A DNA stretch of 41,017 nucleotides from Pseudomonadota bacterium (GTDB lineage: Bacteria; UBA10199; 2-02-FULL-44-16; JBDRGF01), in the NCBI GenBank assembly GCA_043818055.1, contig JBDRGF010000156.1, positions 1 to 41,017 of the forward strand. Reading direction: 5' to 3'. The notes under the pieces are model-generated. The model was given only the letters and a program-made list of their open reading frames with translations, had not been told where the DNA came from and made no database searches. The position numbers and the translations under genes are program-made. Positions 9,507 to 19,038 of the stretch are shown piece by piece (position 1 is the first letter of the stretch; each line of letters starts with the position of its first letter).

Positions 9507-10097
9507 GTGGATAAAAAACATTCAAAAATATTGTCCGTCAAAGAGGTTGCTGAGTGGTTTGGGGTTGATGAGGTGACTATATATAGAAAGGCTCGGCGCG
9601 GAGATATTCCCGCGATGAAATTTGGCAAGCAATGGCTTTTTTCTCAGGAGGTGATCGAAGAGTGGATATCATCAAAAATGGGGGGAAAAGAGGCCTCTGC
9701 ACCAACGCCATTAGTAGAACGGCTAAAGGTTTTGACCGGTGAATTTGATGAACTCAAAAATATAAAATTGATATATCTCTTTGGATCGTCTTTGACCGGT
9801 CATAATACGCCGCTGAGCGATGTCGATATTGCCTATCTGGATGATGAGAGCTTATCTCCTTTTGATTTTGAATATAGGATTGAGGAGATAATCCGAAAAA
9901 AAATCCCGGATCTGCCGCGCATAGACCTTGTCCGTTTAAATGATGCCCCTGTTGTTTTTTGCTTCAAGGCGATAAGCGAAGGAGAACTGATATATCGCAT
10001 TGATGAGAAGAGTCAGGCTCTGTTTGAAGAACGTGTGATAGGTGAGCATCTTGATTACAGTTATGTGCTAAAGGCTTTTTACATGGATGCCGCATAG
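9507..10097 (+). CDS. Excisionase-like HTH fused to minimal nucleotidyltransferase (MntA-type antitoxin)
   Basis: N-terminal LSVKEVAEWFGV..TIYRKAR.G.IPA.K.GKQWLF; C-terminal YLFGS...SDVDIA...IDLVRLN. Confidence 0.87.
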   Translation: MDKKHSKILSVKEVAEWFGVDEVTIYRKARRGDIPAMKFGKQWLFSQEVIEEWISSKMGGKEASAPTPLVERLKVLTGEFDELKNIKLIYLFGSSLTGHNTPLSDVDIAYLDDESLSPFDFEYRIEEIIRKKIPDLPRIDLVRLNDAPVVFCFKAISEGELIYRIDEKSQALFEERVIGEHLDYSYVLKAFYMDAA

Positions 10098-10113
10098 CAT
10101 CGAGGGAGAAAAG

Positions 10114-10536
10114 ATGGAGATCGATAAGGAATTAATTCAGAGAAGGCTTGGTGAATTGCTTTCGTTTGTGAATGAGCTAAGGGGGATGGGAAATATCGAA
10201 AGGGAAACTTTTAAAAAAAACATAGAGCGCCAATATTCTGTCATGCATTTGTTGCAACTTAGCATCGAGGCAACGCTTAGCATTGCAAACCACATAATTG
10301 CGAGGAAACATCTAGGAATACCCAACAGCTATCAAGATAGTTTCGAGCTCCTGGAGAGGGCAAAAATTCTTTCCCCAGAGTTTACAATCGAGATGAAAAA
10401 AATGGCCCGCTTTAGAAACAGATTAGTCCATCTCTACTGGCAGATTGACCTCGATCAGATATACGATATCTACACAGGAAAACTCGGCGATTTTGAAGAA
10501 TACGCTCGGTTGATCAGGGGATCGTTGCAGGTGTGA
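10114..10536 (+). CDS. HEPN/DUF86 ribonuclease toxin (HepT-like)
   Basis: FRNRLVHLY Rx4H motif; follows an MNT gene. Start placed at MEIDKE after GAGGGAG; the ORF also opens at 10087. Confidence 0.9.
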   Translation: MEIDKELIQRRLGELLSFVNELRGMGNIERETFKKNIERQYSVMHLLQLSIEATLSIANHIIARKHLGIPNSYQDSFELLERAKILSPEFTIEMKKMARFRNRLVHLYWQIDLDQIYDIYTGKLGDFEEYARLIRGSLQV

Positions 10537-10659
10537 ATATGAAGAGATGGCGGTCCTGCCACCTTATGTTCATTTTCTTTACACGTAAAATGTTTAAAAT
10601 ATTGACTTTAGCTGTCTATCCATATAAAAAAACATCTTGAGGGGGGGGGCAAGGGAGCC

Positions 10660-11445
10660 ATGAACAAAAACAAGGGTTCATATATTAAACGTTTGAGGGG
10701 AAAAATGAATTTTACTCAGGATTACGTTGCTCGTGAGATTGGAGTTTCGCGTCCAACCTACATCCTCATGGAAAAGGGAGAGAGGGAGCTGTCGATTTCA
10801 GAAGCGGAGAAGCTTGCAAGGTTGTTTGATATGTCGATCGAAGAATTCTTAAACGAAGAGGAGGGTCGCAAACACGAAGTTGTTTTGGAAAAATCTTCCG
10901 CACGCTCCCATATGAAACAGAATATACGAATCAGCGTACCCCAAAAAAATCTTAAAAAATTCAAAGAGGTTCTTCTCTATATTCTCGAAAAGGTTGGTGC
11001 TCGTCCAAATATTGGAGAGACTGCTATCTATAAACTTCTCTACTTCATAGATTTTGATTATTACGAAAAATTTGAAGAACAATTGATTGGGGCTACGTAC
11101 ATAAAAAACAAATTTGGCCCGACACCGGTTGAGTTTGTAAAAATTGTACAAGAGATGATGAAAGAAAATGAGATTGAAGTTGTGAAGAGCAAATATTTTC
11201 AGTTTGAACAGAAAAAATATCTTCCTCTAAGGTCTCCCGATCTCTCTGTTTTGAATGCCAGAGAGTTGGAACATATCAATGAGGTGCTTGCTCGCCTTGC
11301 GGACAAAAGCGCAAAAGAATTAAGTGACTATTCTCATGATGATTTACCATGGAAGGTTCACAAGATGAACGAAAGGATCAGTTATGAAAGCGTCTTTTAT
11401 CGCGATTACGAACATTCGGTAAAAAGCTATGACGATGAAGTTTAA
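10660..11445 (+). CDS. XRE-HTH fused to DUF4065 (Panacea/SocA-like) antitoxin
   Basis: N-terminal IKRLR...TQ..VA..IGVSRPTY..MEKG; C-terminal KLLYFIDF, GPTP, ELSDYSH.D.PW. Confidence 0.85.
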   Translation: MNKNKGSYIKRLRGKMNFTQDYVAREIGVSRPTYILMEKGERELSISEAEKLARLFDMSIEEFLNEEEGRKHEVVLEKSSARSHMKQNIRISVPQKNLKKFKEVLLYILEKVGARPNIGETAIYKLLYFIDFDYYEKFEEQLIGATYIKNKFGPTPVEFVKIVQEMMKENEIEVVKSKYFQFEQKKYLPLRSPDLSVLNARELEHINEVLARLADKSAKELSDYSHDDLPWKVHKMNERISYESVFYRDYEHSVKSYDDEV

Positions 11446-11776
11446 TGAAACTGCGAAATTCAGCAAGGAATTAAAAACCCTTTCAAAAAAATACAGGTCT
11501 TTGTCGGACGATCTGGCAGAATTTAAAAAGGTTATTACATCTATCCCGTGTGGTACCAGTAAACATAGTGTGATGTTACATAATGCTGGAGATTTTAAAA
11601 TCATCAAATCCCGTTTTTTCTGCAGATATCTCAGAGGATCGTCTATGAGAATCGTCTATGCATATTACGAAAAAAAACAACAGGTCGAATTTATTGAGTT
11701 GTATTTCAAGGGGGATAAGGAGAGGGCGGATGCTAAAAGGCTGGATGAATATATAATGTCGTGTTGCGCAAGTTGA
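11429..11776 (+). CDS. RelE/ParE-superfamily toxin-like protein
   Basis: FSKELKTLSKKYRSLSDDL...MRIVYAY...FIELYFKGDKE; overlaps the antitoxin-like gene. Confidence 0.7.
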   Translation: MTMKFNETAKFSKELKTLSKKYRSLSDDLAEFKKVITSIPCGTSKHSVMLHNAGDFKIIKSRFFCRYLRGSSMRIVYAYYEKKQQVEFIELYFKGDKERADAKRLDEYIMSCCAS

Positions 11777-11848: not shown

Positions 11849-12853
11849 ATGGATATTGAACAAATTATTCCTAATTACACAGTTGCTGATATTGCTAAAA
11901 AAATATCAAAAATAATTGAACCAGGAAATTGTGTTGCTTGGATTGGATCTGGTTTTACAAAGTTGGCTGGTTATCCATCATTGTATAAACTTGTTATGAA
12001 TCTTATTGATAGTTGTTATAGCAATAACAGCAAAAGTGCGAAAGATCTGAAAAAACAGCTAGATGACAAAATACTCACGGAATATGAAATTGCCGAAAAA
12101 TGTTTTGATTCGGGTAAGAATCAAAAAAAGTATTATGAATGTCTAGAAAAACAATTTGAAAAAAATAATATTACTCGAGAAGGTATTACTACGCTGGCCA
12201 AGTTACCCTTCAAAGCTTATATTACTACAAACTATGATTCCAAATTGCCAAATGCAATTGATGTGGAATTGTCTTACAATGCAAAAGTTTTTGTTGGAAA
12301 ACAATCAAAATATAGTGAAATTTCTAAGCACACAAAACCAGTTTTTTGTATACATGGACTTGTAGATTTTAAGAGTATTGGGGATCCAAAAACCATTGTA
12401 TTAAAAGAATCAGATTTTAGCAGAGGATATGAGGATATTAAGACATTTATAAAAGATGTTCTCATAAAGGAACAAGTTGTTTTCCTTGGTTGTAAGCTCG
12501 AAGAATCTATAATGAGGGAGATTTTTAATGAAATTGATGAAGTGCCGAAAAAAAAGAAATTTTGTATTTTAAGTAAAACTTCTGAAAATGACGCTGAAAT
12601 AGCATTGTTAAAAAATAGCCCTGACATCAAGATAGATGAAAAATCGGATGAAGAAAAACAAAAACTAATAAATGAGCAAAGAAAAATAATGGATAAAAAC
12701 CACGCTAAAAGATTCGATAAGATTAATGCAATAACCTTTGCATATGAACCCGAGAAGCCTTCGTATCATGATGAAATCGAAACTTTATTAGAGTTAATTA
12801 ACAGAAATTGTTTGGATAAAGTAAGAATAAAGCAGAAAGAACTAATAGTATGA
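11849..12853 (+). CDS. SIR2-like (sirtuin/NADase-type) domain protein
   Basis: VAWIGSGFT..AGYP, YITTNYD, FCIHG, VVFLGC motifs typical of defence-associated SIR2 domains. Confidence 0.87.
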   Translation: MDIEQIIPNYTVADIAKKISKIIEPGNCVAWIGSGFTKLAGYPSLYKLVMNLIDSCYSNNSKSAKDLKKQLDDKILTEYEIAEKCFDSGKNQKKYYECLEKQFEKNNITREGITTLAKLPFKAYITTNYDSKLPNAIDVELSYNAKVFVGKQSKYSEISKHTKPVFCIHGLVDFKSIGDPKTIVLKESDFSRGYEDIKTFIKDVLIKEQVVFLGCKLEESIMREIFNEIDEVPKKKKFCILSKTSENDAEIALLKNSPDIKIDEKSDEEKQKLINEQRKIMDKNHAKRFDKINAITFAYEPEKPSYHDEIETLLELINRNCLDKVRIKQKELIV

Positions 12854-15705
12854 ATATAAAAGAAAAAATAGATATTATTGATAAGATGCTACGAGAAAAT
12901 AAAGCTTCCCATACTGCTTTAATGAATATTGTTAATGACAAAGTGGCTATGAATTATTTTGTAGATAGGGTGGATGATCCTGATTGGATCTCAATTTTTA
13001 AAAAAGAAGGTTGCTTTAACAAAACTGAAGATTGGGTTGTTGGATTATTATCAAAGTTTGCGACGGATTCGCCAAAAGATGTTTCTGATATTATTGTTTC
13101 ACTGCCTTATACAGAGAACGAATGGCATCATCGTGATTTTGTTGAAGCTGCAATCAAGATGTCGGTTGAATACGCAGTTAAAATTGCAAAAAAGGAGATT
13201 GAATGGATCGAAACAAGAGAGTCAATATTTCATATCGATCCTAGAAAATATGGAAGCTTAATAAACAAGCTCTGTCATGATGGAGAGGCTAACACTGCTC
13301 TCGAATTAACAAAATCTCTCTTGGAAATATCGAAAGAAAAATTAAAGGGCGATTTCGTTTTAGTAAAATTAAAAACCAAGATAGAGACTTGGAGTTATGA
13401 TCAGCTCGTTAAAATGGTTGTGCCTGATCTGACTAAATATTCACAATTTGATGCCCTCGAGCTATTTTCTAAACATTTAGATAATGCACTAATAAATTCA
13501 AGAGAATCAGCTGATAAAAATAAACCTTGTGATTATTCCAATATGTGGAGGGAGAAAATTTTATCATCCAGTAGGATGCCTTCAGATGATATTAAAAACT
13601 CACTTGTAACTGCTGTGAGAGATTCGGCTATTATAATCTGTGAAGCTAATAAAAATAACTCCAATAAAATTAGCGAAGTAATCAAAAAAATTGAAGATTA
13701 TAACTGGGATGTTTTTAAAAGAATTTCTCTTTACCTTTTGGATAAGTTTTCTGATGTTGCAGCTGATCTAATTGTTCAAAGATTAACTAAAAAAGAATAT
13801 TTCGAGGAACTTGGGGTCTATAACGAATTTTACCAACTTTGGAAAATACATTTCAATTTGCTCAATCCCGATCAAAAAGAAAATATCCTCAACTGGATTA
13901 CAAAATATGAAATCGAACCTGGTTTAAATGAAGATAAAAAACAATCAGAGCTGTTTTTAAAGAATTTCCAGAGAGACTGGTTTGAGGCTATTTCTGATAA
14001 ACTGCCTTCAAAATACAAAGAACACTACGATGCGCTGATTAAAGAGATTGGACATTCAGAACATCCTGGGTCTAGAGCACCAGTTCATAGGACAATGAGC
14101 GGGCCGAATTCTCCGAAGAGTATTCCGGAACTGTCAGAGATGAAAATCGAACAATTAATTGAATGTTTGAAGGAGTGGAAGCCGAAGCCGAGTGGTGAGT
14201 TTATGTCACCCTCACCAGAGGGCTTGGGTCGGAACCTGACGGGGGTTATCGAGGAAAATTCATCTTGCTACGCAAAGAATGCTTTGGAATTCAAAAAACT
14301 AGATGAACCGACATATATAAAATCAATTCTCCGCGGTTTTCTAAACGCTTGCAACAATCAAAAAATTTTCGATTGGGATCAGGTGCTTGAATTGTGTAGA
14401 TGGATTGTTATAGATGATCCAAAATATTCTGATCGAAACAAGGAATTATTGAGGGAATATGAACAGGATCCGGATTGGAATTACACATATTCTACAATCG
14501 CAAGATTTCTCGAAGCTGGTTTTTCGCAGAAAGACACTCAGATTCCAAATGAGTATCGAAAGTTAGCTTGGGTAATATTAGACGGGCTTTTTGGTAAACG
14601 ATATAAGTTACCAAAGGAAGAATTTAATCCTGACAACGATTACATTCATGAATCCTATAACAAATTTGAGGGACAATTGTTTCACACCTTGATTCAATAT
14701 GCCCTATGGGTGAGAAGGGAGCTTGAGTTAAATGATAGTTCTGAAGAGAATAGAAAAAAACTTCAGGTGGAGGGGTTTAATAATTTTCCTGAAGTAATAG
14801 AAAAATTAAATGACTATTTGGATAACACCGACAATTATAATGGGATAATTCATTCGGTTTTAGGTCAAAGATTTGCATGGTTGTTGATGCTCGATAAGAG
14901 TGTGACAGTAAATGCAAAAGGAAAAATTTTCTCAGATGATCAGTTTGGTGAGACTGCTTGGAGAGGATATCTCGAGTTCTCAGCTCCATATGATAGTGTT
15001 TTTGAATTAATTAAAAATAATTACAAGAATGCTGTTAAAAAACTTGGAACACCTTACTTTAAAAATGAGAATGACAGAATTCCCACATACATCGAAAATT
15101 TAGCTGAGCATATTATACAATATTATTGGCGGGGTTTGATCTCTCTTAATGATGAAATAGTGAAAGACTTTTTTAAGCAATCTCCTTTAGAACTTAGAGG
15201 ATATGCTTTGAATTTTATTGGTCGTGTTTTAAAATCTGAAAAAGATAAAATCCCCGATGAAGTGATGGATCGATTTATCAAATTATGGGAACGAAGATTT
15301 AGTGAAATCAAAGATCTTCCAGGTGGAGAAAAAACACCTGAGCTAAAAGCTTTTATATATTGGTTTAGGTCTGGAAAATTCGAAATGAAGTGGGCATTTG
15401 AAAGGCTAAACGAAGTTCTTGAAAATCTAAATAAGGGTGAGGATGGTGTTGATTCGATGTTCATGGAATATTTGGCTCATTTGAGCGAGGAGTATCCTCA
15501 AGAATGTATAAAGATACTTCACAAGATCGTGGAGAAAAACTTGTGGAGGGCATATATGTTTTTTGAAGAGGATATTCCTGAGACCATAATCAAAAACGCC
15601 CTAGAACATGATAGCTCTGAAGCGACTAAAAAAATAGTTCGAGAGGTTATCACTCGTTTTCTTGAAAACGGCTATTTCAAACTCCGCGAACTCTGGCCGG
15701 AGTGA
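12850..15705 (+). CDS. Large predicted alpha-helical protein, translationally coupled to the SIR2 gene
   Basis: 951-aa ORF, ATGA overlap with the SIR2 stop, amphipathic helical pattern, no Walker A, signal peptide or TM segment seen. Confidence 0.8.
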   Translation: MNIKEKIDIIDKMLRENKASHTALMNIVNDKVAMNYFVDRVDDPDWISIFKKEGCFNKTEDWVVGLLSKFATDSPKDVSDIIVSLPYTENEWHHRDFVEAAIKMSVEYAVKIAKKEIEWIETRESIFHIDPRKYGSLINKLCHDGEANTALELTKSLLEISKEKLKGDFVLVKLKTKIETWSYDQLVKMVVPDLTKYSQFDALELFSKHLDNALINSRESADKNKPCDYSNMWREKILSSSRMPSDDIKNSLVTAVRDSAIIICEANKNNSNKISEVIKKIEDYNWDVFKRISLYLLDKFSDVAADLIVQRLTKKEYFEELGVYNEFYQLWKIHFNLLNPDQKENILNWITKYEIEPGLNEDKKQSELFLKNFQRDWFEAISDKLPSKYKEHYDALIKEIGHSEHPGSRAPVHRTMSGPNSPKSIPELSEMKIEQLIECLKEWKPKPSGEFMSPSPEGLGRNLTGVIEENSSCYAKNALEFKKLDEPTYIKSILRGFLNACNNQKIFDWDQVLELCRWIVIDDPKYSDRNKELLREYEQDPDWNYTYSTIARFLEAGFSQKDTQIPNEYRKLAWVILDGLFGKRYKLPKEEFNPDNDYIHESYNKFEGQLFHTLIQYALWVRRELELNDSSEENRKKLQVEGFNNFPEVIEKLNDYLDNTDNYNGIIHSVLGQRFAWLLMLDKSVTVNAKGKIFSDDQFGETAWRGYLEFSAPYDSVFELIKNNYKNAVKKLGTPYFKNENDRIPTYIENLAEHIIQYYWRGLISLNDEIVKDFFKQSPLELRGYALNFIGRVLKSEKDKIPDEVMDRFIKLWERRFSEIKDLPGGEKTPELKAFIYWFRSGKFEMKWAFERLNEVLENLNKGEDGVDSMFMEYLAHLSEEYPQECIKILHKIVEKNLWRAYMFFEEDIPETIIKNALEHDSSEATKKIVREVITRFLENGYFKLRELWPE

Positions 15706-15726: not shown

Positions 15727-15894
15727 AAAACATTCCCGATCGGGAATGTTTTCTAAAATATACTGATTTTATATACCCTTTAAGGTATAAAGAACGAAGA
15801 ATTATACCCAAAAAGGTATATTCTTTAAAATATTAACTAAATATATACCTTAAAAGGTATAAAATATTGACAATTATACCCAAGGGGGTATAGT
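15727..15894 (+). promoter_or_regulatory. Array of palindromic operators and sigma-70 promoter of the hipB-like gene
   Basis: TATACC-N6-GGTATA at 15772, 15803, 15844, 15875; perfect 26-bp palindrome 15727-15752; TTGACA(15867)-16 bp-TATAGT(15889). Confidence 0.85.
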
Positions 15895-15901
15895 AAAACT
15901 T

Positions 15902-16117
15902 ATGAATTTTAGGGATTACATAAAAAAACGCAGGAAAGAGGAGGGTTTTACGCAAGAGAAGATCGCTGAACTTGCAGGTGTCGGTTTGCGATTTATACGC
16001 GAGTTGGAGCAGGGAAAAGAAACTTTGCGAATGGACAAGGTGAATTTGGTGTTGAAACTCTTTGGCAAAAAGCTGGGTCCCGTTGATCTCTTCGAAGATG
16101 AAGAGGTGCCCAAATGA
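15902..16117 (+). CDS. HipB-like (y4mF-type) XRE transcriptional regulator
   Basis: TQEKIAELAGVGLRFIRELEQGKETLRMDKVNLVLKLFG. Confidence 0.88.
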   Translation: MNFRDYIKKRRKEEGFTQEKIAELAGVGLRFIRELEQGKETLRMDKVNLVLKLFGKKLGPVDLFEDEEVPK

Positions 16118-16404
16118 AATCCGCAAAAATTTTGCTATGATCAGGTTGCCTGATAAAGGGTATAGACTCTCTCCCGCCTTTGATATTGCGAGTTCAAGAC
16201 TAGCCCTTCCAAATGAGTCAGATGAGATGGCAATTGCGATCAACGGCAAACAAAACAAAATCAAACTCAATGATTTTAGGGCGCTGGCTAAATCACTTGA
16301 GATGAATGATAAAAATTTCGATGATGCTGTCAATCGCGTGAAGTTAATTAAAACAAGTGTGGATAAATTTTTGAATAACTCATTCCTCCCCGCTGAATTC
16401 AAAG
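16114..16404 (+). pseudogene. hipA-type operon remnant: stub start (MKSAKI) joined to the C-terminal part of a HipA kinase
   Basis: ATG overlapping the hipB-like stop closes after 8 codons. Another frame reads KNFAMI...YRLSPAFD...AINGK...SFLPAEFK (HipA C-lobe) with no N-lobe. Confidence 0.8.
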
Positions 16405-17442
16405 CCTGAATTCAACCGGGAAGTGCCCCACGTAGCTGGTTGAAGACCTCGGTGGGTGTTTGAAAACCCAAACACTTTCGTGGTCTGTTGTTTAGTCGTC
16501 GTTCAACAAAACTTATATCCTTTTTCGTAAATTTCGCAAGGTCAGTCTTCTTCGGAATGAAACGCCGAACTAACCCGATCGTATTTTCAACCGTTCCCTT
16601 CTCCCAGCTGCGATATGCGCCACAGAAAAAAGAAAGTGTTCCGAGGGTCACATTTACCCGCTCATGTTCAGTGTTCTCAGATCCATTGTCATAAGTAATG
16701 CTACATCGAACCGATTGCGGATAGTGAGACAAACGTCTATTGATTGCCGTTCGTGTCTGTGATGCTGTCTTACGTTTAACCAATGTCAATTTTGTGTAAC
16801 GGCTTTTGCGCTCAACTAGCACCTGTGTAGCAGTTTTGCTTGCCCTGGATATCATCGTATCCGCTTCCCAATGTCCAAACTCTTTCCGCTGATTTACCGC
16901 TGTGGGACGCTCTGAAAGACTGATCCGGTTCGGTATATGCGACTTTCTATGTTTACGGCTGTGTCCTTTTTTATGCCTCTGCTTATGCCGCCGAGGAAGA
17001 TAGCCAATCAAATCTGTACGCTTCTCATATATCCATCGGTAGATCGATTCATGACTCGCCGTTAATGACTGACTCTTAAGCTTCAATCGACCGGCAATTA
17101 GTTCCGGTGACCAACCCTCTTTTAGTCGCTTCTCGATATGTCGTTGAAGCTTCAAGTTCTTAAGCCATTCCCGTTGTCCAGCAGCCTGTTTCCGCTCCTT
17201 AGCTCGCTCATGCGCTTTGTGGGGCAGATAATATCCTTGATATACCGGTGGAGCATTTCGCAACAGCTCCCGTTCGATCGTTTTACGATCTCGTCCCATT
17301 AGTCGCCCAATCTCGCTAGGCCCTCGTCCTTCGGCTTTAAATATTGAAAGCTTCTCTCGCTCCTCCAAACTTAAATGTCTGTATTTCTTTTTCATACCCA
17401 CCTTCTATCATACTAGGTGGGGCACTTCCTCTTTGAACTTGG
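16405..17442 (-). mobile_element. IS30-family insertion sequence
   Basis: Imperfect ~30-bp terminal inverted repeats sharing TTCAA and GGAAGTGCCCCAC; AAAG on both flanks (16401-16404, 17443-17446). Confidence 0.9.
16412..17395 (-). CDS. IS30-family DDE transposase
   Basis: YRHLSLEER HTH, WSPELIAGRL, GHWEADT, ITYDNGSE, WEKGTVENTIGLVRRFIPK, LNNRPRKCLGFQTP. Confidence 0.95.
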   Translation of the reverse strand: MKKKYRHLSLEEREKLSIFKAEGRGPSEIGRLMGRDRKTIERELLRNAPPVYQGYYLPHKAHERAKERKQAAGQREWLKNLKLQRHIEKRLKEGWSPELIAGRLKLKSQSLTASHESIYRWIYEKRTDLIGYLPRRHKQRHKKGHSRKHRKSHIPNRISLSERPTAVNQRKEFGHWEADTMISRASKTATQVLVERKSRYTKLTLVKRKTASQTRTAINRRLSHYPQSVRCSITYDNGSENTEHERVNVTLGTLSFFCGAYRSWEKGTVENTIGLVRRFIPKKTDLAKFTKKDISFVERRLNNRPRKCLGFQTPTEVFNQLRGALPG

Positions 17443-17496
17443 AAAGTCAATTTTCAGAACATTTTCCAGGTGAGATATAAACGAATGTTTAAGTAA
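17443..17496 (+). pseudogene. Extreme C-terminus of the HipA remnant beyond IS30
   Basis: Removing the IS and one AAAG gives ...SFLPAEFKVNFQNIFQVRYKRMFK*, ending at TAA 17494-17496. Confidence 0.7.
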
Positions 17497-17498
17497 GC

Positions 17499-18923
17499 TT
17501 ATTCGAATAAACAATCTGACAACAGCACTTGTGAAAAATAACCGCTTTCATCGAGATCTTTAGTGATTCCTTCGGTTGTGATCAGTACCTTTTCAATGGT
17601 TTTTTGAGCTTGAGGTAATTTAGAAATTTTATTTTCTATATCATCGATGATCCATTTTCCAATTTTTCCTGAGTAGTATTTTAATTCGCATATAGTAATA
17701 ACCGGGTCGTGCCGTTCGAACAGTAAATCGATTTGAACTCCCTCTTTTGTATTGGTTTCGCGGTTGAAGTAAGATCCAAAATCTGACACCAATTGGTCAA
17801 TTTTAAGTCTTTTTGCTATTTGGTTTATATGTTTAAGGCAAAGCCTTTCGAATGCCAGCCCTTGCCATGCCTGATACTTTCTTGATCGCATGATTTGAGA
17901 AAAAAGATTTTCTTCCAGGTTTTTTTCAATTTTTTTGAAATTTGGTTTAATAAATTTAAAATAGAAATGGATATACTCATCTTCCAGTCTATATCTTTTT
18001 AACTTACTCTCCTCTGGTTTTCCACAAGGGATGTATCCCTTAATAAATCCCGCTTTTTCAAGATTATCCAAATAGCGTTGAAAGCCTCCCCCCTCCGTCA
18101 TTTTTAGTGCATCCAGCAGTTCTGTTGCTTTTAAACTTTTATACTTGCTAAAAAGCATTATCATTTTTCTGTATACTTTGTCTTCATGGAAGACATCTTT
18201 AAAAATTCTATCAAACTCTTTTGTAAAGTAGCCATCTTTTGAAAGGGCCAATTTGTTTATGTTAACCGCAACGGAACGATTATTCTCAAATTGCATAAGA
18301 TATGCAGGGATTCCCCCACAAAACATATAGAGATTCATTATCTCCCGCTGAGATCGTTTTCCTTCGAAAAAATCGTAAGTCTCCTTGATGGATAGTGGTT
18401 GCAGACAGATTTCAAGATTGATGCGTCCGTAAAGGGATGAGGAATTGATCACTGAATCGACCATAAATGAAGCGATAGATCCGCAAAGCACCAGAGTAAA
18501 ATCCTCTCTCTTTGACCAAAGGTTGTTCCATCCCCAAGTGAGCTCCGAGATCATTTCCGACCGCCTATTTGCCATGTAGGGGATCTCATCTAGAAAAAGG
18601 ATCATATCGTGTTTATGTTTTGTTTCATCAATAGCTTTATCGAGCAATTTAAAGGCCTCAATCCAATTTTTACATTGTGCGGTTCTGTAAAGATTGTTTT
18701 TTGTGATATCAGCAAGGGTTTCGAGAAAAGAGGAAATTTGCCTCTCTTTTGACTGATTTTCCAATCCTTCGAACTTCCATATATTCTTATCTTTGTAATA
18801 TTCTTCAATGAGTCTTGTTTTTCCCACCCGGCGCCTTCCGTAAATTGCAATCAGGCTGGCGCTGTTTTTGTCATACTCCTCTTTCAGAACTCTTTTCTCA
18901 TACTCTCTTCCGATGAATTTCAT
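17499..18923 (-). CDS. Archaeal-type AAA ATPase with wHTH and C-terminal PD-(D/E)XK nuclease-like domain (DUF234-like architecture)
   Basis: FIGRE, Walker A YGRRRVGKT, Walker B LFLDE, LCGS, GGIPAYL, QIDLL...ICELKY. Confidence 0.87.
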   Translation of the reverse strand: MKFIGREYEKRVLKEEYDKNSASLIAIYGRRRVGKTRLIEEYYKDKNIWKFEGLENQSKERQISSFLETLADITKNNLYRTAQCKNWIEAFKLLDKAIDETKHKHDMILFLDEIPYMANRRSEMISELTWGWNNLWSKREDFTLVLCGSIASFMVDSVINSSSLYGRINLEICLQPLSIKETYDFFEGKRSQREIMNLYMFCGGIPAYLMQFENNRSVAVNINKLALSKDGYFTKEFDRIFKDVFHEDKVYRKMIMLFSKYKSLKATELLDALKMTEGGGFQRYLDNLEKAGFIKGYIPCGKPEESKLKRYRLEDEYIHFYFKFIKPNFKKIEKNLEENLFSQIMRSRKYQAWQGLAFERLCLKHINQIAKRLKIDQLVSDFGSYFNRETNTKEGVQIDLLFERHDPVITICELKYYSGKIGKWIIDDIENKISKLPQAQKTIEKVLITTEGITKDLDESGYFSQVLLSDCLFE

Positions 18924-18939
18924 GGTACCTCCATAAAAA

Positions 18940-19038
18940 TGTCCGATTAGGGGTAAAAAATGGTCTTATAGGACACTTTTGTCAACAGATAATTGTGTCC
19001 GATTAGGGATTAAAAATAGCATTATAGGACACTTTTGT
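18940..19038. repeat. Two 43-bp direct repeats upstream of the ATPase gene
   Basis: 18940-18982 and 18996-19038, 38/43 identical by manual alignment, each with TGTCC...GGACA inverted motifs; minus-strand TTGACA at 18980-18985. Confidence 0.85.

Follow-up and report, generated by a model that had tools for sequence, protein, structure and literature searches.

Avs7, Dsr1 and proteins that carry other effectors without a nucleoside triphosphatase (NTPase) have a bilobed sensor in common (Lee et al.; accessible portions of PMC12803255 and PMC13581612). In those portions the major capsid protein was the sole activator of SeAvs7 and of EcDsr1 in a 73-gene screen, capsid binding draws the SeAvs7 sensor lobes together, and recognition is ascribed to broad shape complementarity and not to single residues; the published survey of the sensor saw split proteins and analysed their neighbours. 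In apo SeAvs7, contacts of the C-lobe keep the effector inactive (PMC12803255, in the part available). We describe here a SIR2 gene and an adjoining sensor gene in the window, the 41,017-nucleotide stretch of contig JBDRGF010000156.1 (positions 1 to 41,017, forward strand) that was analysed. We propose, with a probability of roughly 0.55, that they form a naturally two-gene Dsr1-type system, in which the parts likely bind each other, a capsid protein closes the sensor, and destruction of NAD+ follows.

The first gene (11849..12853, + strand) encodes a stand-alone SIR2 protein of 334 amino acids, a predicted NADase effector on the grounds of a Pfam SIR2_2 match, invariant residues, fold and clade placement. 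The second (12850..15705, + strand) encodes a Dsr1/Avs7-type helical sensor of 951 amino acids without an NTPase, a predicted capsid-protein receptor by fragment matches to the Dsr1 model, family profiles and a structural model. Both lengths and the ATGA stop/start overlap that joins the genes (12850..12853, + strand) are as the first-pass annotation had given them, and its two-gene design, a helical sensor and a separate SIR2 inside a defence island, proved real. The overlap suggests translational coupling; unlike most relatives, the window has no clear Shine-Dalgarno motif at this junction. The one RNA run gave only contigs over parts of the island, and these carry no information on expression.

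The 951-residue protein had been described as helical, lacking Walker A and transmembrane features, and as matching nothing named; the first description was borne out and the second was not. No Walker A pattern and no hydrophobic segment was found in it (maximum 19-residue hydropathy 0.96), and its AlphaFold2 model is almost all helix, a helical solenoid with a mean predicted local distance difference test score (pLDDT) of 81.5 and a predicted template modelling score of 0.54. A non-helical, low-confidence linker (residues 401-424; 14050..14121, + strand; pLDDT <50 at 410-418) lies between the predicted N-lobe and C-lobe, and structural matches often begin or end at residues 407-426. Whole-protein scans returned no Pfam or PADLOC family and nothing credible from NCBIfam (one match, E 0.09), and a genome search with the Dsr1 model did not find the sensor. 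However, two of four fragments of the protein matched the PADLOC Dsr1 model PDLC04166 (positions 500-863, E 3.4e-27; 732-1000, E 6.3e-24), and the kinship had thus been missed because the whole-protein hidden Markov model scan is empty where sub-fragments match.

Relatives of the sensor support the same placement. Besides the window's own protein, 37 were found in the first homologue search, and the family comprises 3,435 clusters at 50% identity (E 0.001). All 13 relatives tested matched PDLC04166, mostly over about 290-1220 of its 1227 positions, which is the part after the SIR2 domain. A family profile of 19 sequences aligned over its full length with the C-terminal ~930 amino acids of two haloarchaeal P-loop proteins (E ~1e-88) that we take to be Avs7-like; it aligned likewise with a Bacillus SIR2 fusion at E 5e-38 and, at E 7e-126, with a fusion from Streptomyces. 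A 243-sequence profile matched all four annotated Dsr1 proteins (E 1e-7 to 4e-16, 23-51 bits), the best of 103 controls reaching 14 bits. By these sequence matches the protein is a helical sensor of the Dsr1/Avs7 family. Searches of other kinds were less informative. Neither window protein matched NF041818, the curated whole-protein Dsr1 model (1400 bits), to which relatives scored at most 57 bits; a search of PDB sequences with the sensor profile gave designed helices at best (E 0.06) and found no DSR2; and Foldseek and VIA-align returned only generic solenoids, with a best Z of 12.5 for Avs4, level with importin/CAND1-type folds. DSR2 was absent from the listed sequence and fold matches, in searches of a kind that can miss long solenoids, and the phage collection gave no match.

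The SIR2 protein had been credited with intact motifs, and these were confirmed: it matches Pfam SIR2_2 (E 5.7e-14), and G33, G35, T126, N128, H169 and G170, invariant across 37 aligned members of its clade, are all kept (GSG motif at 11945-11953, N128 codon at 12230-12232 and H169 codon at 12353-12355, all + strand). The model of the protein has a pLDDT of 84.7, with the SIR2 domains of ThsA and DSR2 as top Foldseek matches. In DSR2, defence requires N133 and H171, and DSR1 is described as causing transient NAD+ depletion (10.1101/2021.12.14.472415, portion available). A profile of the clade gave wild-type DSR2 86.5 bits and the H171A variant 79.1, a loss of about 7 bits. DSR2 shares with the window's pair the SIR2 fold, the catalytic Asn and His and the logic of a helical sensor, but it is a single chain that senses tail tube protein (the same partly available source). 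Among solved structures, Thoeris ThsA has the SIR2 that comes closest in both profile and fold, and the PADLOC ThsA SIR2 region matches the window's SIR2 at E 2e-14 over 8-232 of 478; the window's protein, however, has no second-messenger domain (SLOG/STALD or Macro), and no TIR protein of the ThsB kind was found among the 30 window proteins scanned with Pfam and PADLOC. SIR2-HerA and SPARSA differ in the partner, which here is an all-helical solenoid with no HerA or short pAgo match in Pfam or PADLOC.

How the locus compares with Dsr1 and Avs7 is less simple. Dsr1 (defence-associated sirtuin 1; PADLOC PDLC04166, NCBIfam NF041818) likewise consists of a SIR2 domain, with the catalytic Asn and His that are present here, followed by the same helical sensor without an NTPase, and the linker helix of the Bacillus SIR2 fusion resembles the cap helix that opens the window's sensor. 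Dsr1 is one polypeptide, however, whereas the window has two genes, as do the related loci described below; the window's SIR2 belongs to a separate stand-alone clade; and its sensor resembles the sensors associated with HEPN and NTPase domains far more than it does canonical enterobacterial Dsr1. Judged from sequence, the locus likely works like Dsr1 while departing from it in single-chain architecture, in the curated model and in SIR2 lineage. Avs7, a STAND receptor for the major capsid protein (PMC13581612, portion available), probably has the bilobed sensor in common with it: the model shows two lobes and the family profile matches P-loop-fused proteins over its full length, though no PDB sequence matched that profile. 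The window's protein lacks the STAND NTPase (no Walker A, no Pfam NTPase, an all-helical model), so nucleotide-driven tetramerisation cannot apply, and its effector is supplied in trans. NTPase-less HEPN-like sensor proteins (a Streptomyces example is in the available part of PMC13581612) and their split forms belong to the same sensor sub-family, but here the effector is a SIR2 and the cap helix lies on the sensor, not on the effector end. The first-pass annotation had called the pair a candidate undescribed system. The sensor family is known, however, and the locus is therefore likely a variant, in its architecture, of defence built on the Dsr1/Avs7 sensor, with a trigger that can be predicted, rather than an undescribed system.

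Whether the split is natural was addressed by a survey of relatives. Among 80 sensor loci from GTDB, 12 lacked the N terminus or the upstream gene, and the 68 evaluable ones comprised 40 with a separate overlapping HEPN-like gene, 24 with a fused N-terminal domain and 4 with a separate SIR2 gene. The HEPN label is based on sub-threshold pP_pnuc_1 matches in 16 of 69 effectors and on cross-matches among three effector profiles, and it leans as well on what we take to be HEPN motifs. A look for alternative effectors among homologues of the large protein had been suggested, and most do carry a HEPN-like one, separate or fused.

The SIR2 side gave a more uniform picture. A profile built from five SIR2s defined a distinct stand-alone clade of 25 proteins scoring at least 113 bits, the next match having 75, and a search of longer proteins found no fused member (best 73 bits). 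In a tree, 15 partner SIR2s lie on one side of a branch (Shimodaira-Hasegawa-like approximate likelihood-ratio support 96) and six of seven Dsr1-type SIR2s group apart (98); this was a quick tree of 34 of 89 rows in which the window's row is long and compositionally odd, and the grouping of partner SIR2s was less well supported in another run. By sequence, the window's SIR2 is a divergent member of this sensor-partner clade. A metagenome scan yielded 79 loci, 25 in the clade and 54 outside it. A separate sensor frame directly follows the SIR2 in 21 of 21 evaluable clade loci (19 by profile and 2 read from short DNA ends, with five pairs near-duplicates) and is fused in none, while no sensor adjoins the SIR2 in any of the 54 non-clade loci. 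Left out as not evaluable were L107, with an internal deletion, and L108-L110, which lie at contig ends; L100, L112 and L113 have frameshifts inside a gene. Conversely, in sensor-first searches all six cap-bearing stand-alone sensors have a clade SIR2 upstream. When 401 genomes were sampled from each of two phyla, the sensor was present in 12 and 6 of them (centres included), and these added two SIR2 pairs but no fusion to a SIR2. Within the phylum of the window itself, 3 of 93 genomes have the sensor; in one of these (G007) it takes the split form with a HEPN-like effector and adjoins a type I restriction locus, the restriction genes being named by eye from translations.

The split is natural, then. 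That an assembly error broke a single Dsr1 polypeptide, or that programmed -1 frameshifting joins the two parts, is an idea already largely refuted, and we consider it very remote. The domain order is that of Dsr1, it is true, the -1 phase is found at 15 of the 17 junctions measured, and among HEPN-type relatives there are fused and split forms whose sensors are nearly identical. L094, L106 and L034, however, show the remaining two phases, a start codon stands just ahead of the cap in 17 of 17 measured junctions, 14 of them with a GAGG, GGAG or AGGA motif (by eye), and both the lack of clade fusions in the longer-protein search and the separate grouping of Dsr1's SIR2 speak for two genes. The junctions themselves overlap by 4 nucleotides in 13 cases, by 1 in two and by 20 in one, with a 12-nucleotide gap in one. 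In the window, contigs from two studies (X1 record 3 and X4 record 10, one of which may be the source sample) span position 12850 without difference. Fusion in all homologues, with reads showing a frameshift near 12850, had been named as one outcome that would refute the candidate; instead the SIR2-partnered relatives are unfused and the junction is bridged unchanged. A literature search found no paper testing a two-gene SIR2 and sensor form. The terms 'split', 'sir2' and 'dsr1' do not occur in seven supplements of PMC13581612, though such forms may be listed in other supplements of that report, probably its Supplementary Table 8 and Extended Data Fig. 2 among them.

The cap helix offers a clue to how effectors couple to the sensor. 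This 14-residue helix opens 20 of 20 aligned SIR2-partnered sensors; in the window it spans sensor residues 3-16 (12856..12897, + strand), the best cap-like 14-mer of 938 positions and supported by the alignment, although its motif is weakened. The best cap match falls within the last 26 residues in 35 of 40 separate HEPN-like effectors and in the linker in 19 of 25 fusions, and at the SIR2 end in none of four SIR2s. Residues 306-319 of the window's SIR2, close to its end, also look cap-like, but we take them to be the ordinary last SIR2 helix. Given that the cap sits on the effector tail in the one case and at the sensor start in the other, different couplings suggest themselves: HEPN-like effectors may dock by completing the sensor's first repeat, and SIR2 partners would have to couple otherwise. 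The sensor tree does not track effector type, and nearly identical sensors occur in the split L007 and in two fused loci, L018 with the same effector type and L008 with another; the tree is star-like, and the window's nearest relative cannot be named. We offer tentatively, at well short of even odds, the broader idea that a capsid sensor lacking an NTPase serves as an independent hub, to which interchangeable effectors are recruited in trans through two kinds of coupling: HEPN-like nucleases would contribute their tail helix to the first helical repeat, and the never-fused SIR2 would dock on the complete sensor and be held off or released by capsid. If this is true, the receptor would double as an antitoxin, a mode that has not been described for either Dsr1 or Avs7.

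Several loci showed further variation. At L007:5983-6011, L018:2227-2928 and similar sites, a single base seems to separate the split from the fused forms of one HEPN-like effector type, at a conserved overlap of some 29 nucleotides where the effector ends in DEILEEANS and the sensor starts with MKSWKKPTPEQ; programmed frameshifting or repeated switching of form is possible there. In L092:5948-10798, and likewise in L093, the sensor frame continues without a stop into an entire pyruvate kinase (1617 amino acids in total), probably by loss of a stop codon. DUF4062 fused to a HEPN-like effector, an AAA_35 NTPase before a fused effector-sensor, and PIN_12 fusions were also seen, jointly in L019:4965-6008, L026, L027, L051:4072-8919, P0039 and L182.

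Beyond the sequence identity of the two proteins, we infer every step of the mechanism. The SIR2 would bind the sensor non-covalently, most plausibly at the sensor's N-terminal end because the fused effector sits there; phage major capsid protein, on the model of Avs7 and EcDsr1, would clamp the two sensor lobes; the SIR2 might then oligomerise; and, as in Dsr1 and DSR2, it would cleave NAD+ and so block the phage by abortive infection or through a transient drop. Several observations weigh against this two-gene Dsr1-type scheme. Capsid sensing is proven for just two family members, SeAvs7 and EcDsr1 (PMC12803255 and PMC13581612, available portions). The sensor's kinship to Avs7 is drawn through P-loop-fused proteins and not through SeAvs7 itself, and a profile of the four annotated Dsr1 bodies misses the window's sensor (E 0.78) while finding 54 of 184 relatives. 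Conservation of the SIR2 tail is lacking across the clade, so no docking motif is evident on the enzyme. The window's copy is also an outlier in conservation: of 78 highly conserved columns its sensor retains 64, fewer than all but 3 of 242 relatives that retain still less, and its SIR2 retains 16 of 20, the lowest of 37, in a comparison that favours the relatives, which defined the columns.

Given that the C-lobe of apo SeAvs7 holds the effector inactive, a model of release fits equally well. The sensor would then be an antitoxin for a SIR2 that is active alone, held inactive by the sensor and released to oligomerise on capsid binding. The autoinhibition by C-lobe contacts is in keeping with this, as is the fact that the SIR2 is always a separate gene (the 21 clade loci and the 6 from sensor-first searches), whereas HEPN-like effectors are fused in 24 of 68; translating the SIR2 first would be risky for a free toxin, however, and L107, where the sensor is largely deleted, does not decide, since the SIR2 is truncated there as well. 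On balance we regard this as unlikely.

The divergence of the window's copy raises the possibility of altered specificity or of decay. Its sensor is only 19-36% identical to relatives, resembles canonical Dsr1 weakly, and differs at conserved positions (R607E, R668H, Y671L, W685V, and a short deletion after residue 61), all of which would suit a sub-family or a divergent copy that keeps the architecture but has as its ligand some phage protein different from the major capsid protein. Since two distant sensor branches, Avs7 and Dsr1, both use capsid protein and do so by broad shape rather than by single residues, we find this improbable. More doubtful still is a decaying, non-functional member of an otherwise active family. 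The low motif retention in both genes as scored, the junction without a clear ribosome-binding site, the long branches, the broken hipA and insertion sequence (IS) nearby and the several broken relatives would all fit decay, but neither of the full-length reading frames is interrupted by a stop over the 3.86 kb, the catalytic Asn and His are kept, many changes are conservative, the listed contig pieces from other samples show no difference within either gene, and the retention comparison carries the bias noted above.

A naturally two-gene Dsr1-type system would bear on a gap in the published account, which in the available portions of PMC12803255 and PMC13581612 centres on Avs7 and does not explain how an NTPase-less Dsr1-type sensor activates its effector. 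In this natural two-piece version the sensor, the enzyme and the capsid protein could be purified and mixed separately, so that activation could be tested directly against release. Scans of whole proteins with PADLOC, Pfam and NCBIfam do not reveal the pair despite the 3,435-cluster sensor family, and defence catalogues may therefore undercount such systems.

Around the pair, toxin-antitoxin genes, an IS and a PDC-S27 ATPase make up a stretch of 9.4 kb that is bounded by genes for an amidohydrolase and a pyridoxal phosphate-dependent enzyme. The pair's genes had been called AT-rich and flanked by toxin-antitoxin modules, and both claims were upheld. The GC content is 29.7% for the SIR2 gene, 34.8% for the sensor gene and 33.5% for the pair, against 43.3% for the genome and 45-51% for six housekeeping genes; only 0.6% of 2,386 same-length genome windows are as low as the pair. 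Upstream lie an HTH-MntA antitoxin and HepT toxin of type VII (9507..10536, + strand; NCBIfam NF047752 and NF047751, above cut-off) and an Xre-Panacea antitoxin with a RelE-like gene (10660..11776, + strand; Pfam PF13274 and ESM Atlas), the latter gene (11429-11776) having no Pfam match and being put by the Atlas among RelE-like clusters. Downstream are a HipB-like antitoxin and a HipA C-terminal remnant (15902..16409, + strand; TIGR03070 above cut-off, PF07804). The remnant (16114-16409) has an ATGA-coupled start after the HipB-like gene, a few codons and a stop, with only the C-terminal part of HipA after it, and adjoins the end of an IS with 25-nucleotide inverted repeats (16411..17437, - strand; HTH_38 and rve, inverted repeat I3), presumably IS30-like. 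Beyond it, 17499..18923 (- strand) encodes a candidate defence ATPase, a full-length match to the PADLOC candidate PDC-S27 (ATPase and DUF234; E 3.5e-125).

Among 13 SIR2-type loci, whose 72 neighbouring frames were scanned with Pfam, four have type I restriction genes and three more have Fic, AlbA, DndB or PIN/IrrE; of the remainder, four have no such neighbours and two only an IS or GIY-YIG gene, these being raw counts without a background rate. Scans of the window for promoters and terminators were at chance level (30 against 30.2, and 6 against 6.9). Repeated palindromic sites of TATACC..GGTATA type surround a near-consensus promoter upstream of the HipB-like gene (15766-15892) and are probably its operators. 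A 23-nucleotide imperfect inverted repeat (10587-10609 and 17443-17465), which may be due to chance, encloses the Panacea pair, the SIR2-sensor pair, hipBA and the IS, and at the right edge of the island, upstream of the PDC-S27 gene, there are two 50-nucleotide direct repeats, 84% identical (18933-19038).

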